51,040 bases of DNA. Origin: an uncultured Deferribacteres bacterium. GTDB taxonomy: Bacteria > Zhuqueibacterota > Zhuqueibacteria > Zhuqueibacterales > Geothermadaptataceae. The notes under the pieces are model-generated. The model was given only the letters and a program-made list of their open reading frames with translations, was not told the DNA's origin and made no database searches. The stretch lies in the NCBI GenBank assembly GCA_964014485.1, contig CAXHAT010000030.1, positions 1 to 51,040 of the forward strand, read 5' to 3'. Both the position numbers and the translations under genes were made by a program. Shown piece by piece: positions 1 to 46,843 of this stretch. Within the stretch, counting starts at the first letter, position 1. Every line of letters starts with the position of its first letter.

Positions 1-62
1 TATTCCAGTATTCCAGTATTCCAGTATTCCAGTATTCCAGTATTCCAGTATTCCAGTATTCC
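1..62. repeat. Tandem octamer repeat (TATTCCAG) x7.75, truncated by the window start
   Basis: Perfect 8-bp period read directly: seven full units at 1-56 plus TATTCC. Confidence 0.97.
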
Positions 63-116
63 AAACAAAATTGAGGTGGAATTTAGGAAATAATCGAGAT
101 TTCAAAAGACGCTTTT

Positions 117-2814: not shown

Positions 2815-3093
2815 CACGCGCGATAAAAAGAATGTGGATAACTTGTACATTGTCCTGGAGGGACATTCGAAAATAGCCAGCCAATTCATTGGCTGGATTA
2901 GAGTTATGTCTGATTTCCATGAAGTCCCGTCAGGGACGATTGAAGCTCGGCGTTGTGTAAAAATATCAGTCGTCCCTGCCGGGACTTAACTCAAAGAGCG
3001 GCTTATTTTTCCCCCGCCAGTCAACTGGCGGGCTATTCTCGACCGTCCCTCCGGGACAGATTTGAGTTATCCACATTGTTTTTATCGCGCGTG
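2815..3093. mobile_element. Inner MITE family B (29-bp TIR containing a DnaA box; 10-bp TSD CGCCTGCGCG)
   Basis: CACGCGCGATAAAAAGAATGTGGATAACT (2815-2843) matches the reverse complement of 3065-3093 at 28/29. CGCCTGCGCG is duplicated on both flanks. Confidence 0.85.
2851..3058. repeat. REP/REPIN-like multi-hairpin element (GTCCC...GGGAC family)
   Basis: Nested palindromes: GTCCTGGAGGGAC, CCAGCCAATTCATTGGCTGG, AAGTCCCGTCAGGGACGA / TCGTCCCTGCCGGGACTT, CCCGCCAGTCAACTGGCGGG, GTCCCTCCGGGAC. Confidence 0.75.
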
Positions 3094-5184: not shown

Positions 5185-8100
5185 ATGAAGTGCACCCGTT
5201 TCTTATTCATTTCAGCGTTGAACATGCGAAACGTCTTGGCGCTCATTTATTTGGTGTGTTTGCCTGCAGTTCTTCTTGGGCAAAACGACTGTCGTGACGC
5301 CGTTCACGATCCTGCGAACTTAAAATGCGTGCTGGACGTCAACCCGACGACCTTTCTGCCAATGACGGACGGAACGGCCTATATTTCCGTGACCGACGCT
5401 ACGCAAACGCCTTACAGCACTTTTCTCTACCCTTCCAATTCGAATGACATGCCCGCCCTCCACCGATCAAAGGGCCAATCGATCGCCGCCGGGATTGTAC
5501 CGTTAGACGTGAACGGAAATCCGGATGTCGTCAACGGCAAAATCAAAATTATTGCGGAGGGGCCGTCTAATCAACGCGATGAAATGGACAAGTTTTTTGA
5601 GCTGCACATTGACGGCAACGCCGCGTTACATCCAAATTTGGAATTTGAGAATCTAGCCGTCGGCTCATGTGACCTGGTTTGCTGGGCGGACGGCGGGCCC
5701 GGCGCTGTCGACCCGCAGGTGCAAATCGCTTTTGTGAAGCACACAAATAATCGCAAACAAAATCAGGATGGTTCGCCGCTTCAGGCAAACGGTTATTTCA
5801 ACACAGCGGCGGATAAATCGTTTCCCAACCATGCACAGACGACTAAGTCGATGCTGAAAACGCGCATTCTCGATCTCAAAATAAAATACCCTAACCTCAA
5901 AATCGTCTATTTGACCAGCCGCTCCTTCGGCGGATGGTCTTGCGATCCGTCAAACGACCAATACCGCGAGCCGGTGGGTTACGAAGAAGGTTTTTCCGTC
6001 AAGTGGCTCGTCGAAGATCAGACGCTTGGCAATGATCCAGACCTCGCTTTTGAGGGCGCCAATCCGCAAGCGCCGTGGATCGCCTGGGGGCCTTATCTTT
6101 GGGATCCGGCCACGCCGCAAGATCACATGAAAGACGACGGCGTACACCCTTGCGAAACCGGCCAGACCGTGATTGCCGATAAATGGTATGATTTCCTGAC
6201 CAATGATAACACCGCCGCGCCCTGGTTTCTGGACGCCAATATCGACGCGCCTTCCGGCTTGACGGCGATGCTCAACGGCGCAACCACGATTGATTTGAGT
6301 TGGACGGACAATTCGAACAACGAAGACGGATTTACGATTGAGCGCAAGGAAGGGAACGGCGCTTTTGTCGCGATTGCTTCCGTAGGCGCGGGCGTGCAGA
6401 CTTACATCGATTCCGGCCTGCAGGAAAGCACGTCTTACACTTATCGCGTGCGTGCTTTTAATGCTCAGGAAACCTCTTCTTTCAGCAACGAAGCGGCCGC
6501 CGCCACGCCTGGCGTACCGACGGCGCCGGAGAACCTGATCGCTCTGGCAGCGGCAAACGACCAAATCGATCTTTCCTGGACGGACAATGTCGGTAATGAA
6601 GATAATTTCAAAATCGAACGGCATTCAGGCGACGGCAATTTTGTCGAGATCGCGACGACGGCGGCGAATGTTTCGAGCTACAACGATGCAGGCCTGACGC
6701 CGGGCGCGACTTACACTTATCGCGTTTTTGCCATGAACGCCCAGGGGAACTCCGGTTTTACCAACGAAGCTTCCGCGACTACGCCGACGCAAACCGCCTG
6801 CGTGCCAAACGGCAATAATCTCGCGCTTAATCAAGCGACGACGGCTTCTTCCGTTGATCCGCCGGACAATCCCGAAGACGCGACCGACGGCAACAGCGGC
6901 ACGCTCTGGCGCAGTGACGATGTTAACGAAGGAACGCCGGAATGGCTCAAGGTCGATTTCGGCGCGACGGTGCAGGTGGACAGCGTTTTTATCGGCTGGG
7001 AAAGCAAAGATTACGCGGAAGTTTATGAAGTCCAGCTTTCAGACGACGACCTCAACTGGACGACGGCGGTGAGTGCAACCAAGAGCGACGAGGGCGACGA
7101 AATCCATACTTTCGCCCTGACCAGCGCGCGCTACATGCGTATTTGGATGACGCAAAATCGCAAATCGACTTACAAAGTTTATGAATTGGAAGCCTACGGT
7201 TGCAGCGGCGACGTCATCAACGCTCCGGCGGCGCCGAGCGCACTCACGGCGACGAAAAATGCAACAACGCCGGATTCGCGTATCGATCTCGTCTGGACGG
7301 ATAATGCGGACAATGAAAACGGCTTTAAAATTGAGCGGCACAACGGCGATGGCAATTTTGTCTTGATCGCCAGCGTCGCGGCGGGCGTGACGACGTTTTC
7401 CGATTTTGGTTTGGACGACGGCACGACCTATACTTACCGCTTGAGCGCTTACAACGGCGCTGGAGATTCCGGTCTTTCCAACGAAGCGTCTGCGAGCACT
7501 GATCTGCTGCCGCCGGACGCGCCGAGCGATTTTACCGCAATTGCAAACGGAGTGAGCCAGATCAATCTAAGCTGGACGGATAACGCAGACAGTGAAGACG
7601 GCTTTAAAATTGAGCGTCACGGCGGCGACGGCAATTTTGTTGAGATCGCCGCAGTCGGCCCGGATGTGACGACTTACAACGACACGGGGTTGAGCGCGAG
7701 CACAACTTTTACTTACCGCATTGCCGCCTACAACGCCGCTGGAAATTCCGTTTACGCCGGGCCGGTTTCCGCCACAACAAATGACCCGCCCAATCCGCCC
7801 GCCGCGCCCTCCACCCTAACAGCGACGGCTATCAGCGATACGCAAATTGATTTGACCTGGACGGATAACGCCAACAATGAAAACGGTTTCAAAGTCGAGC
7901 GCCACGCTGGGGACGGCAATTTCGTGCTCATTGCGACGCTTGCGGCGAACGTTACGTCTTACAGCAACACCGGTTTGAGCGCTTCCACAACCTACACCTA
8001 CCGCATTTTCGCCTTCAACGACGACGGCGATTCCGGCTTTTCGAATGAAGCTGCAGCAACGACGGCTCCTCCCCCGCCGCCGCCAGCCGCGCCTTCGGGA

Positions 8101-31231: not shown

Positions 31232-31642
31232 ATGACAAGAGCCGTTATTCGCTTTATATACGTCTCGGGCATATTCGTTTTTGTCTATTTTGCCTATCGC
31301 GTGGGGATGCTTCATGGCCAAGGCTTAAGCTTGATGGAGCGGCTGAGGCTCATCCCCGTTCCCAAAATTAGCTGCGCACCCATAGATAGAGCCCCGCGCC
31401 CACAGACTTGCTTTTTCGTCGCTCCTTATTGCACGATTGTATTTGAGGGATGTTTTCCTGTTCGCGATCAAGCCAAAGCGCTGAAGAATCAACTCGTCAA
31501 ACAAAGAATTCGTGGCGAAATTGTCTCTCAAAACGGAGCTTACTTTGTCACGGTCGGGCGGCTCAGGGCGGGGGAAGATCGAAACGCACTGCTAAGAAGC
31601 ATTTCCCGGAAGGGATTTAGGGCTCGAATTGCCTGCCCTTAA
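31232..31642 (+). CDS. Membrane-anchored SPOR-like protein 1 (divergent)
   Basis: N-terminal TM helix; YCTIVFEGCF...AKALKNQL...NGAYFVTVGRL...KGFRARI. Confidence 0.7.
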   Translation: MTRAVIRFIYVSGIFVFVYFAYRVGMLHGQGLSLMERLRLIPVPKISCAPIDRAPRPQTCFFVAPYCTIVFEGCFPVRDQAKALKNQLVKQRIRGEIVSQNGAYFVTVGRLRAGEDRNALLRSISRKGFRARIACP

Positions 31643-43228: not shown

Positions 43229-45097
43229 ATGCCGCCCGACTCAACCCATTTTCTCCAAACCTTCATCGACCCGGCGCCATACACGCCCACGACAATTATC
43301 GCATTTCTCAGCCTGATTGTCGCCATTATTGCGGCCTACTACGCCTCAGCGCCCTACCGCAAACGCCGCCGCGAAGAGCGCGTGATTGAAAAAAACTTCG
43401 GCGTCGAGCTTTACAGCCTCGACGACGTGGAAAAAATTAAAAGCGACGCGCGCTACTACGTGCCGCCGGACTGCTCCAGCGTTGATCCGGCGCAAGAAGC
43501 TGAAATCCGGCAAGTGCTCGCCACCAAGCAAAAGCTGTTTGAAACCATCGACGAATATCTCGACAAGCCAGGGCCGCATCGCCACTTGCTCGTGCTCGCC
43601 GATTCCGGCATGGGCAAATCTTCCTTTGTGCTAAACTACTACATCCGCAACCAACTGCGCTCGAAAAAGCAGCGACGGCGCTTGGCCGTTGTGCCGCTGG
43701 GCGTGCCCGACGCCGACGAGCACATTGCCAAAATAGAAAACAAGCGCGAGACCATTCTCTTTCTCGACGCTTTTGATGAAGACACAAAGGCGATCCAGGA
43801 TCACCGCCAACGCTTGCTCGATTTGATGCAAAAATGCCGTAAGTTCAACCGCGTTTTGCTCACTTGCCGCACACAATTCTTTCCGCGCGACGAGGAAATT
43901 CCCAAAGAGACCGGCATTGCCCGCGTTGGACCGCGCAAGGCGGGGGAAGGTAAATCCTATGAATTTTGGAAGCTTTATCTTTCGCCCCTAAGCGACGCGC
44001 AAGTGGAAACTTTTCTCCTTCAACGTTATGGCTGGCGCAAAACTGAGCGCGAAAAAGCCCAGGAACTCATTGCCAAAATCCCCCTGCTCAGCGTGCGCCC
44101 CATGCTCATGGCCTACGTCCCTGATTTGCTTGAAAGCGAGGCTAAAATCGAATATGCCTTCCAACTTTATGACGTGCTGGTGCAAAAATGGTATGAGCGC
44201 GAAGCTGGATTTGTAGAGCAAGAAAAACTGCAAAAATTCACTGAATTGCTCGCCGTCGATCTATACGCCAAACGCAAGCAGCGCGGCTCCGAACGCATCT
44301 CCCGCGATGAGCTCAAGCCGCAGGCGGAAGCCTGGAATATCGATCTCAAGGAATGGCAGCTCAGCGGCCGTTCTCTGCTCAACCGCGACGCCGAGGGCAA
44401 CCACAAATTCGCCCATCGCTCGATCATGGAATTCCTGTTTATCAAACAATTCATCGCCGGGAATGAGAACTGCCGAAATATGGCCTGGACAGATCAGATG
44501 AAAAAATTCATGCGGGAATGGATTGATTTCGAAATAAAAGAAAAAGGCAAGATCGAGACCGATTTAGTCGGCGCAAGTTTGGGGGATCGAACATTTAGAA
44601 CCGACGGCAAAACGCTTGGGCAAGACGAAGTGAAAAAAATGCTGAGCGAGTTCGATATTTTTGATTCAGATTGGAACAAAAACGGCAAGGGCGTTCCGCA
44701 TCTTTATTGTTCTGTGGAAATTGGTGATGAGAAAATTGTGTATGACGCCGAAACCGGCCTTTACTGGCAGCAAGGCGGTTCATCTGATGCGATGATTTAC
44801 CAAGACGCCGGAAAGTATATCGAAAAACTCAACCGCGAGAAATTCGCCGGATTTGAAGATTGGCGCATGCCGACGCTGGAAGAAGCAATGTTACTGATGG
44901 AGCGAGAGAAGAAGAACGACGCTCTGTACATTGATCCGGCGTTCGACAAAACGCAGCGGTGGATTTGGACGGCGGACAAGCTGGATGCGTCGGACGTCTG
45001 GGTTGTCGATTTCGTCTACGGTCTTTGCAGCGGCGATCGTGTCGGCTACGACTACTACGTCCGCGCTGTTCGTTCCGGACAATCATTGGCTATTTGA
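43229..45097 (+). CDS. Membrane-anchored NACHT/STAND-like NTPase with C-terminal DUF1566 (C-type lectin fold) domain; candidate DGR target
   Basis: TM helix followed by RKRRREER; Walker A LADSGMGKS; Walker B ILFLDAFDE; LTCRTQFF; FAHRSIMEF; DUF1566 motifs YDAETGLYWQ, GFEDWRMPTLEE, WIWTAD and WVVDF...YVRAVR. Confidence 0.9.
   Translation: MPPDSTHFLQTFIDPAPYTPTTIIAFLSLIVAIIAAYYASAPYRKRRREERVIEKNFGVELYSLDDVEKIKSDARYYVPPDCSSVDPAQEAEIRQVLATKQKLFETIDEYLDKPGPHRHLLVLADSGMGKSSFVLNYYIRNQLRSKKQRRRLAVVPLGVPDADEHIAKIENKRETILFLDAFDEDTKAIQDHRQRLLDLMQKCRKFNRVLLTCRTQFFPRDEEIPKETGIARVGPRKAGEGKSYEFWKLYLSPLSDAQVETFLLQRYGWRKTEREKAQELIAKIPLLSVRPMLMAYVPDLLESEAKIEYAFQLYDVLVQKWYEREAGFVEQEKLQKFTELLAVDLYAKRKQRGSERISRDELKPQAEAWNIDLKEWQLSGRSLLNRDAEGNHKFAHRSIMEFLFIKQFIAGNENCRNMAWTDQMKKFMREWIDFEIKEKGKIETDLVGASLGDRTFRTDGKTLGQDEVKKMLSEFDIFDSDWNKNGKGVPHLYCSVEIGDEKIVYDAETGLYWQQGGSSDAMIYQDAGKYIEKLNREKFAGFEDWRMPTLEEAMLLMEREKKNDALYIDPAFDKTQRWIWTADKLDASDVWVVDFVYGLCSGDRVGYDYYVRAVRSGQSLAI
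44975..45082 (+). other. Putative DGR variable region (VR)
   Basis: 25 consecutive codons (45002-45076) end in C or T, at the C-terminus of a DUF1566 domain. Confidence 0.7.
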
Positions 45098-45135
45098 TCA
45101 TTTGAGTCATTTGGTTATTTTTCCCGCGCAGCGGG
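45083..45135 (+). promoter_or_regulatory. Post-VR TCATTTG-like repeats and GC hairpin (candidate IMH/cruciform)
   Basis: TCATTGGC TATTTGA TCATTTGA GTCATTTG GTTATTT, then the hairpin CCCGC-GCA-GCGGG at 45123-45135. Confidence 0.55.
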
Positions 45136-45209
45136 TTTGAGAATTTCAAAAAACGATGCAAAGCGGGCGCTAAGAAATTTTTTCAGGGCTTTCACGTTTT
45201 CTATTATAA

Positions 45210-45330
45210 GGAGCGCAAGGCTTGCCTTGCAACGCCGCCGCAGGCTTTTTATCGCCCGCTCATTTTCTGGGGAGTTTTGCTGCGCCGGAATTTGTGAACC
45301 GAATGAAAGGCAAAGCAAGCTTTGCACTCC
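45210..45330. repeat. REP-like inverted doublet, family D copy 1
   Basis: GGAGCGCAAGGCTTGCCTTGC ... GCAAAGCAAGCTTTGCACTCC; a second copy lies at 47751-47824. Confidence 0.8.
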
Positions 45331-45340
45331 GTTTTTGGGG

Positions 45341-46066: not shown

Positions 46067-46211
46067 GATTTATTACGACTTCAATGTTACCGTGAAATTC
46101 TTTTGCGATCAGCAAAAATAAACGCTTATTGTTTACGAAAACCCCTTGCGATTCAAACTCATCGGATGTAGGTTTGAATCAACATGTAGTTCAAAAGCAA
46201 AGGTTGGACGA

Positions 46212-46478
46212 ATGGCCAAATTAATACTCTCGGATTTTTCTCAAAAAGGCGAAAAGATTTATCGAGAGCAAATTCTTCCAAACATCTCTGAAAACATGCT
46301 CAAGGGAAAATTTGTCGCTATTGAGGTCGAGAGCGGAAGATACTTCATCAACGATCTCGATATCGAGGCTCTCTTTGATGCTCGGCGTGAATTTCCTGAA
46401 AAACAATTTTATTTAAAAAAAATTGGTTACGCGGCTGCGCATTCGCACAAAGGCGTCGTTAAAAAAGCCGTTCTATGA
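46212..46478 (+). CDS. Small DUF5678-like protein, partner of the aspartic protease
   Basis: KGEKIYREQI...GKFVAIEVESGRYFI...ARREFPEKQFYLKKIGY; ATGA overlap with the next gene. Confidence 0.7.
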   Translation: MAKLILSDFSQKGEKIYREQILPNISENMLKGKFVAIEVESGRYFINDLDIEALFDARREFPEKQFYLKKIGYAAAHSHKGVVKKAVL

Positions 46479-46843
46479 TCACAGGGAGAATTACAGTAAA
46501 TCTTGAGCCGCTGTTAGACGATGTTTTTGTGAAGAATAAAAAAGGCGCTCTTTTGCCGGTACAGATAATTTTAGATACTGGTTTTAATGGGGCGATTTTT
46601 CTCCCCAAAAATGTTCTAAAACAGATGGAAGTCACGCCGATTGCGAAAGAAGTTTTCGAGCTCGCGGACGGCAGCCGCGTGGAAGAGCAAACATATCTTG
46701 GCGAAATCATCATCGCGAACGAGATACAAACTGTTCTTCTCAGCGGTATGGAATCGAAAGTTGCTCTCTTGGGAATGCGTATGCTGTTAGAAAAGGCTGC
46801 AGTTTTTGATTTGAAGAATATGACGATTCGAGTCATTGAATAA
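46475..46843 (+). CDS. Clan AA (retropepsin-like) aspartic protease, AF_0612-like
   Basis: Motifs ILDTGFNG, FELADGS and ALLGMRML. Confidence 0.88.
   Translation: MITGRITVNLEPLLDDVFVKNKKGALLPVQIILDTGFNGAIFLPKNVLKQMEVTPIAKEVFELADGSRVEEQTYLGEIIIANEIQTVLLSGMESKVALLGMRMLLEKAAVFDLKNMTIRVIE

Follow-up and report, generated by a model that had tools for sequence, protein, structure and literature searches.

We describe here an open reading frame (ORF) that is very probably served in trans, as a non-adjacent target, by a complete diversity-generating retroelement (DGR) carried elsewhere in the same genome. The ORF lies toward the 3′ end of the window, which is the whole of contig C30 (G000:C30, positions 1-51040) from an uncultured bacterium of candidate division KSB1 whose genome, G000, comprises 8.4 Mb in 465 contigs. 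In DGRs, the transcript of a template repeat (TR) is copied with random nucleotides placed opposite its adenines. The window gene ends in a 97-nt variable repeat (VR) that is homologous to a TR on a second contig, C74, and the two differ at 16 positions, 15 of which fall on the 27 TR adenines and the last on one of the 70 remaining TR bases (Fisher p 1.6e-9). The features of the gene that bear on this proposal are listed below.

43229..45097, plus strand: the remote DGR target ORF, 622 aa, with a TGA stop codon at 45095-45097, defined from the ORF list and homologs
44988..45084, plus strand: the VR, 97 nt long, whose homolog is the TR at G000:C74:31619..31523 (minus strand); 14 of its codons, within residues 589-610, are variable
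45002..45076, plus strand: a 25-codon NNY run (N, any nucleotide; Y, pyrimidine), codons 592-616; the third position is C or T in all 25 codons of the AAC/AAT-rich TR as well
45059..45084, plus strand: the invariant 3′ end of the VR, GTCCGCGCTGTTCGTTCCGGACAATC, resembling an initiation of mutagenic homing (IMH) site, defined by the VR/TR alignment

A template on another contig pairs with four genes

A sequence-only reading of the window had drawn attention to 25 consecutive pyrimidine-ending codons, had noted that neither RT (reverse transcriptase) nor TR is visible in the 51 kb, and had predicted that both are encoded elsewhere. The codon run is exactly where that reading placed it. Because the chance estimate for such a run is ~3e-4 (0.56^25 over ~600 start positions, 0.56 being the ORF-wide fraction of third-position pyrimidines) and the runner-up run in the ORF spans only 9 codons, we do not regard it as a product of chance; the NNY signature follows from the C or T third positions of the TR across all 25 codons. 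Neither an RT nor a second VR copy was detected in the window by tblastn and blastn, and whole-genome matches fell only on other contigs. A BLASTN search of 44900-45140 against the genome, a check of the kind that the same reading had suggested for 44970-45085, recovered the 3′ ends of three paralogous genes, of which C74 carries two and C135 one, and the non-coding TR copy, with the RT start codon 27 nt downstream of it. The predicted retroelement is thus present in the genome, as a bAvd-TR-RT cassette on C74 that is flanked by two targets, and a further target lies on C135.

C74 cassette, gene 1, same strand as the rest of the cassette: NNH1-NACHT-(LRR)-Lcl_C target, 1027 aa
C74 cassette, gene 2: bAvd, 143 aa, between the first target and the TR (PF22296: E 3.9e-13, score 50.3 bits, cut-off 40)
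C74 cassette, part 3, 31619..31523, minus strand: the TR, AAC-rich, 97 nt
C74 cassette, gene 4: the RT (RVT_1, E 1.6e-14; MutS_I at the C-terminus, E 6.7e-9)
C74 cassette, gene 5: polytopic-membrane target ending in Lcl_C, 483 aa
C135: TIR_2-Lcl_C target, 312 aa, with a VR matched to the C74 TR

The RT is free of stop codons and contains both YVDD and IGNLTSQ, the latter presumably an instance of (I/L)GxxxSQ, which we take to be a marker motif of DGR RTs. Its C-terminus (L001:10037-10400) is a fused module resembling MutS domain I (PF01624, E 6.7e-9). Full-length matches to this RT, with the MutS_I part included, number 13 in KSB1 genomes, and a search for loci related to it returned one locus, in a KSB1 metagenome-assembled genome.

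The C74 TR pairs with four VRs, namely those of the two cassette targets, the C135 gene, which joins TIR to a C-type lectin (CLec) domain, and the window gene. Adenine positions account for 17 of 18, 17 of 18 and 11 of 12 mismatches in the three other VRs, and every VR-to-VR difference among the four falls on a TR-adenine position. The lone non-adenine mismatch of the window VR is a T>C change at 45080, where all four VRs have C and the TR has T, such that the IMH reads GGACAATC in each VR and GGATAATC in the TR. This is the expected discriminator between an IMH and its template-side counterpart, IMH*, as judged by alignment; the same position varies in relatives too, with C in the VR and G or T in the TR. 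In the four targets the reading frame continues through the IMH to ..VRSGQS(LAI). Many other family members, among both relatives and the genome's own paralogs (L019, L020, L004, L005), have a stop codon inside the IMH (..VRAVR and stop, encoded by CGC TGA GGA CAA TC).

The DNA adjoining the VR tells a different story from the VR itself. Over the 90 nt upstream, the window gene is identical to its three paralogs at only 74/90, 61/90 and 68/90 positions (68-82%), whereas all 70 of the 70 non-adenine VR positions are identical among the four targets. This contrast argues that the window VR was overwritten from the C74 TR after the genes had diverged, and, at the level of sequence comparison, it is the strongest available evidence for a working or recently working trans target. 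A DGR signature recognizable in bare sequence, an NNY run in a lectin tip, can in this way be traced to a template elsewhere in a fragmented metagenome-derived genome.

The target is a predicted membrane-anchored NTPase with a lectin tip

The remaining features of the window protein are as follows.

43295..43351, plus strand: single N-terminal transmembrane (TM) helix, approximately residues 23-41 (hydropathy maximum of 2.3 at residue 23; helix 20-56 in the AlphaFold2 (AF2) model)
43355-43381, plus strand: basic stretch YRKRRREER, directly after the TM helix
43379..44602, plus strand: NACHT-like STAND NTPase module, residues 51-458 (alignment to NLRC4 8fvu_B, Foldseek, invariant residues)
43598-43621, plus strand: Walker A, ADSGMGKS, within the NTPase module
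43754-43783, plus strand: Walker B, ILFLDAFDED, within the NTPase module
within the NTPase module, plus strand: sensor-1-like motif TCRTQ, holding R214 (alignment of 46 sequences)
44735..45073, plus strand: Lcl_C/DUF1566 lectin-fold domain, residues 503-615 (PF07603, E 2.9e-20)

The order that the sequence-only reading had assigned, from TM helix through a basic stop-transfer stretch and a NACHT-like NTPase to DUF1566, holds up by hydropathy, motifs and Pfam, with Lcl_C/DUF1566 scoring 73.2 bits against a cut-off of 34.9. The most hydrophobic 19-residue segment of the 622-aa protein begins at residue 23. Lys and Arg are absent from residues 1-21 and number 7 in residues 43-62, YRKRRREER included. 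By the positive-inside rule, this distribution would place the NTPase and the lectin tip in the cytoplasm, in agreement with the earlier assignment to the cytoplasmic face of the membrane, and we predict a single-pass, N-out/C-in protein with both the NACHT-like NTPase and the diversified tip facing the cytoplasm. K130, D180, D183-E184-D185 and R214 are invariant across 46 aligned homologs; we take these residues, by consensus, to be those of Walker A, Walker B and the sensor-1 arginine.

The description of the protein as resembling nucleotide-binding, leucine-rich-repeat receptors (NLRs) is borne out by fold and fails by Pfam thresholds. The full-length AF2 model (pLDDT 82.8, pTM 0.76) finds NLRP3, NOD2 and NLRC4 as its best Foldseek matches (E 1.5e-8 and weaker). 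VIA-align superposes model residues 51-458 on NLRC4 (8fvu_B; Z 16.4, 335 residues aligned), and its matches to the NTPase part also take in plant resistosomes and Avs5 filaments, among them the AVAST5 filament 9nc9_D (Z 11.1) and EfAvs5 9jap_A (Z 10.1). The model therefore supports a nucleotide-binding domain (NBD) followed by helical and winged-helix domains, as in NLRs. Precomputed matches to PF20720 (nSTAND3) are present in some homologs.

For the lectin tip we relied on the full-length model, as the domain-only AF2 model, built on a 20-sequence alignment, was poor (pLDDT 41.9). The tip aligns with the C-terminal domain of Legionella Lcl (8q4e_A; Z 12.1, rmsd 3.5, 123 residues) and with the DGR variable protein TvpA of Treponema (2y3c_A; Z 9.3, rmsd 2.9, 122 residues). 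A profile of the domain, searched against the sequences of solved structures, gave the Lcl C-terminal domain as its sole match (E 0.004).

Homologs of the window protein numbered 1187 at E<=1e-3 among 8000 scored, and the named ones belong to candidate division KSB1. In these homologs the TM-plus-NTPase module is paired with Lcl_C, FGE-sulfatase or pentapeptide repeats, or with no C-terminal domain at all. Swapping of this kind would be typical of STAND sensors, by analogy with known members of that class.

Proposed mechanism and function

We propose that the RT, together with Avd, reverse-transcribes the C74 TR transcript, placing random nucleotides opposite adenines, and that the resulting mutagenized cDNA would replace window positions 44988-45084, steered by the IMH end GGACAATC. 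The flanking repeats and hairpin described below probably help to steer the cDNA to the window VR. Each such replacement would rewrite 14 codons; as computed, these 14 mutable codons give access to ~1.5e14 protein variants without any reachable stop codon. A ligand, most plausibly a protein of an invader, would then bind the variable surface and trigger NTP-dependent oligomerization at the membrane, and the output would be delivered by the clustered TM helices or by a partner protein. We put the chances roughly even that the window protein acts in this manner, as an NLR-like sensor triggered by ligand at the membrane, with a putative immune or sensing role.

Several observations weigh against such an assignment. 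The Pfam STAND models all score below gathering in the window protein (nSTAND1 23.0 against 27.1 bits, nSTAND3 22.6 against 27.2, NACHT 13.6 against 26.7). Only the TM helix and a conserved linker of ~60 residues precede the NTPase, and a Pfam search found no recognizable effector domain N-terminal of it. PADLOC returned nothing above noise for the protein, its only match being PRTase_III-A at E 0.0065, and among NCBIfam antiphage models EruA reached 20.3 bits against a cut-off of 1000. The NACHT and polytopic targets of the C74 cassette likewise gave no PADLOC match. By the account of Doré et al. themselves (PMC10907252), immune function of STAND-CLec DGR targets is only a proposal.

It is possible, though we think it somewhat unlikely, that the protein is a receptor put to a use other than defence, in which the variable tip would recognize self, kin or environmental ligands or serve regulation, with the NTPase as a signaling switch. 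The lack of any match to a defence-system model or effector domain fits such a role, as do the proposal status of immunity in the literature and the housekeeping character of the neighboring genes (deoC, pyrimidine nucleoside phosphorylase and DUF4399). On the other hand, the same TR also diversifies a TIR-CLec and an NNH1-NACHT-CLec protein, and TIR and NACHT are hallmark modules of conflict systems. PADLOC recognizes the C135 TIR protein through its bSEFIR and ThsB-type models, and the NTPase module recurs with swapped C-terminal sensors (Lcl_C, FGE-sulfatase, pentapeptide repeats), as in antiviral STAND proteins.

Present activity and distance from the template

If the window gene is a trans target, as we propose, its VR may still be diversifying. 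Metagenome data for the region consist of assembled (Logan) contigs from 3 runs of one study. Two points count against the proposal. In these data, all variants at the window VR, among contig matches at 80% likeness, are accounted for by the three paralogs or the TR. Separately, the 90% cluster of the window protein consists of one sequence, found on 3 contigs. Metagenome contigs break inside the VR at 31-mers that it has in common with C74b, one of the two cassette targets, and a 38-nt anchor taken from the DNA immediately 5′ of the VR had 0 exact matches in JGI metagenome contigs.

The same two observations would be explained if the gene were a frozen former target, its VR having been written by the C74 DGR in the past and its specificity now being fixed; two CLec paralogs in the genome, on C45 and C5, look decayed, which fits such a course. 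We nevertheless judge this explanation to be quite unlikely. The window VR equals the TR at 69/70 non-adenine positions, the sole difference being the common IMH marker, in a gene whose adjoining coding DNA has diverged by 18-32% from its paralogs. Moreover, the window gene has an intact IMH, intact repeats and an intact hairpin, all of which match their counterparts in cassette target C74b exactly, and both RT and Avd are intact.

The second question is how remote the target really is. The assembly, in 465 contigs, does not join C30 to C74, and their assignment to one cell rests on binning and on the exact TR/VR match, which is a further point against the proposal. Were the two contigs to abut, the gene would be an outlier of one extended DGR locus, and joining the 3′ end of C30 (51040) to the end of C74 (35511) would indeed leave the genes co-oriented, with a VR-to-TR distance of ~9.8 kb; because this joins the nearest contig ends, the separation is at least 9.8 kb. 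Wu et al. report a continuum of distances without a clear cut-off (PMC5758913), in line with such an arrangement. We consider it improbable, since the terminal 300 nt of C30 show no overlap with the end of any other contig in the genome, and since the 6 kb that separate the gene from the end of C30 encode an unrelated hydrolase, an N-acetyltransferase and hydantoinase B. Even if the contigs did abut, the target would be non-adjacent, and the existence of a TIR-CLec target on C135 makes clear that the sites served by this TR are dispersed. Many contig ends in the genome are short interspersed or tandem repeats: window positions 1-64 comprise eight tandem copies of TATTCCAG, and similar octamer arrays (CAATCCAA-type) stand at many other contig ends. 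These arrays are probably a cause of the fragmented assembly.

Ordinary codon bias, or gene conversion between DUF1566 paralogs with no retroelement involved, could draw on the ~80% identical 3′ ends of paralogs in this genome, but is ruled out by the non-coding AAC-rich template directly upstream of the C74 RT, by differences confined to template adenines, and by a run of 25 codons where the next-longest is 9.

A repeat and hairpin flank as a candidate recognition element

Two features follow the IMH of the window gene, both of which the sequence-only reading had pointed out (as repeats resembling TCATTTG and a hairpin) and both of which lie where it found them.

45089..45122, plus strand: three tandem YATTTGR units (R, purine) at 8-9-nt spacing and a T-run, mostly past the stop codon; candidate VR-side recognition element
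45123..45135, plus strand: CCCGC-GCA-GCGGG inverted repeat, 5-bp stem and 3-nt loop, 38 nt past the end of TR homology

The ATTTG cores are at 45092, 45100 and 45109. The sequence GGACAATC followed by three YATTTGR units is found at 6/6 TR-matched VRs of the genome, four belonging to the C74 DGR and two to a second DGR on C135, and the strict motif is found at 0/7 unmatched CLec genes (degenerate versions at 3/7). Counting both strands, the genome has 41 instances of the strict motif, of which 6 lie immediately past TR-matched VRs. The TR's own 3′ flank is without it.

The CCCGC-GCA-GCGGG element is the minimum-energy DNA hairpin of the window flank, and its 13 nt recur unchanged after the VRs of C74a and C74b and after a VR of another DGR clade in genome G006. 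A terminator scan of the window did not call it. We suggest that it may contribute to target recognition; against this, its folding z is -2.2 in the window and -0.7 and 0.0 at the two C74 copies, i.e., it is no more stable than shuffled sequence at two of the three sites.

The RT family across KSB1 genomes (44/167 at E<=1e-40) allowed us to compare flanks more broadly. Self-similarity at a 7-10-nt lag, measured over the 60 nt past the VR, exceeded the 95th percentile of background in 13/17 flanks of the clade with MutS_I-fused RTs (12/16 without the unpublished genome G016) and in 9/13 flanks of other clades, where the units are CTCTGR- or CCTGA-like; as these loci are related to each other, they are less independent than the counts suggest. 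In KSB1 DGR flanks, the tandem repeats usually give way to a GC inverted repeat.

We tentatively suggest that tandem repeats and a GC hairpin after the IMH could form a portable "address label" by which a lectin gene at any genomic position would be recognized as a site for homing, although we hold this to be the less probable outcome. If true, the label would let one TR supply the same paratope library to TIR, NNH1-NACHT, TM-plus-NACHT-like and polytopic chassis; cellular DGR target recognition would need a component that binds the repeats, for which the MutS_I-like domain of this RT is a possible candidate; and homing could be redirected by moving ~50 nt. In a non-exhaustive full-text check of the literature we found no description of tandem repeats 3′ of VRs, and the combination of tandem repeats after the IMH with a GC hairpin may be new. 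The flank is a concrete, deletable candidate for the unexplained step of target-site recognition in trans.

Farther downstream, window positions 45188-45335 contain palindromic repeats at ~45208-45230 and ~45306-45330, where summed contig depth reaches 80 and 218 as against ~6-20 nearby. Many metagenome contigs carry other sequence in place of the 75 nt between the two palindromes, and the pair resembles an abundant interspersed element of the REP/MITE type (repetitive extragenic palindrome/miniature inverted-repeat transposable element).

Relatives, paralogs and other retroelements in the genome

Matches to the window protein (E <= 0.001) occur in 23/41 genomes, G000 counted, and in 16/19 genomes of one sister family; these tallies include the unpublished genomes G016 and G023, and many of the matches cover the lectin domain only, some being full-length. 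In three relatives (G015, G027 and G019), a full-length homolog adjoins Avd-TR-RT, with an RT ~60% identical to that of C74, and mismatches between the homolog VR and the local TR fall on adenines in 13/16, 13/14 and 13/14 cases, respectively. These arrangements indicate that the family is a habitual cis target, of which G000 has a dispersed copy.

Two further full-length paralogs of the window protein, on C45 (3779-5644) and C130 (20457-22340), have no matching TR, and both look like decayed targets on sequence grounds. C45 differs from the C74 TR at 15 positions over 64 nt, 8 at adenines and 7 elsewhere, and lacks the 3′ element, which gives it the look of a fossil state; the CLec gene on C5 has 22 non-adenine mismatches to the TR. 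In all, no TR was found in the genome for seven Lcl_C genes, located on C5, C34 (two), C45, C322, C130 and C128. Three of these genes (C5:5634-6782 and the two on C34, 23112-26202) retain the repeat flank in degenerate form and have in common a long inverted repeat, GGGGGTGGAAT ... ATTCCACCCCC, which is also present 3′ of the C135 TIR target.

The genome contains a second complete DGR (G000:C135:5250-9320, L004), whose RT (8093-6651) is 57% identical to the C74 RT and likewise carries the MutS_I part. We rejected it as a source for the window VR, as the only partners of its TR are the Lcl_C genes on either side (20 and 19 mismatches). C343:705-1444 contains a third TR/VR-like pair (155 nt, 86% identity), one copy of which is AAC-rich. 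No RT was found on this 5.4-kb contig with an RT query, and a 30%-identical RT is located on C94 (27160-27906); the pair may represent a third DGR with another target type. In one relative (L018, G010:C3), the two VRs, at 6638-6741 and 2955-3058, have the same sequence throughout, so that even their adenine positions and a 2-nt insertion relative to the TR agree, which could reflect recent VR-to-VR conversion or assembly collapse.

Comparison with known systems

The design described here is not new in kind, because both STAND-CLec and trans DGR targets have been published (PMC10907252, PMC5758913). Doré et al. (2024) described DGR targets that combine NACHT/nSTAND1 with CLec, some with TM or TIR, as well as trans-diversified loci, and proposed that they are antigen sensors (PMC10907252). 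Kaur et al. (2020) tied DGR lectin domains to NTP-dependent conflict systems (PMC7159879), and Wu et al. (2018) defined a class of targets with DUF1566, as well as remote targets and a MutS-like accessory that is a protein in its own right (PMC5758913). DGR-diversified STAND-CLec sensors and remote targets are thus already known, and the window gene is a clean new example, which extends the design of a hypermutating NLR-like sensor to the uncultured KSB1 phylum.

A close parallel, from multicellular bacteria, is with Thiohalocapsa PB-PSB1 DGR 3 and 6 (RT clade 5D), whose targets join a NACHT/nSTAND NTPase to a C-terminal CLec with the VR; PB-PSB1 also has at least 2 targets per TR, some TM or TIR targets, trans loci without their own RT/TR, and proposed antigen sensors (PMC10907252). 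The lectin is of the DUF1566/Lcl_C type here and of the FGE-sulfatase type in DGR 6. Unlike the Thiohalocapsa DGRs in that account, the present one has a KSB1-phylum host, a MutS_I-like domain fused to its RT, and a single TR that serves NNH1-NACHT, polytopic-membrane, TIR and TM-plus-NACHT-like chassis (PMC10907252). One 97-nt template feeding four proteins with different outputs offers a compact natural case of how a shared binding site can be coupled to responses.

In placing its VR in a DUF1566-type C-terminal domain, the window protein resembles LdtA of the Legionella pneumophila DGR and target category 'd' (CLec2: DUF1566, DUF823, Fib_succ_major; PMC5758913), and the Lcl C-terminal domain of Legionella is the best structural match of the window tip. 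LdtA is a surface lipoprotein, whereas the window tip is predicted to be cytoplasmic, behind an NLR-like NTPase. Like DGRs surveyed by Wu et al., the C74 element combines Avd with a MutS-like (MSL) function and has a remote target, as seen in their non-phage lineages; the MSL in that survey is a separate protein of 112-283 aa, whereas MutS_I is fused to the RT C-terminus here (PMC5758913). We did not find a fusion of MutS_I to RT described in the literature checked.

With the BPP-1 DGR (Mtd, Brt, Avd; Guo et al., 2011), the C74 system shares adenine mutagenesis, the distinction between IMH and IMH*, and a GC-rich inverted repeat past the TR homology (PMC3240598). Hairpins of the BPP-1 type lie 4-34 bp from the VR and combine a stem of 7-10 bp with a 4-nt GRNA loop, whereas the window hairpin has a 5-bp stem and a GCA loop 38 nt away, with YATTTGR repeats between (PMC3240598). 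The BPP-1 target is a phage tail fiber; that of the window is cellular, predicted to be cytoplasmic, and served in trans.

Avs and other bacterial NACHT proteins share with the window protein a P-loop NTPase of NBD-helical-winged-helix fold and C-terminal sensors that vary across homologs. They differ from it in having an enzymatic N-terminal effector where the window protein has a TM helix, in being matched by PADLOC/NCBIfam defence models, and in having a germline-fixed sensor where that of the window protein would be of a somatically diversified type. TvpA of Treponema denticola has, like the window tip, a CLec fold that tolerates massive variation; unlike the window protein, it is a surface lipoprotein without an NTPase. 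The T. denticola DGR also acts on multiple targets that are not adjacent to it, of which Wu et al. count seven (PMC5758913).

Beyond the housekeeping neighbors, the window contains two small ORFs of 110 and 122 aa about 1 kb downstream of the target gene (46146-46843). The two overlap by 4 nt and have no Pfam match, and their layout resembles that of a toxin-antitoxin pair.

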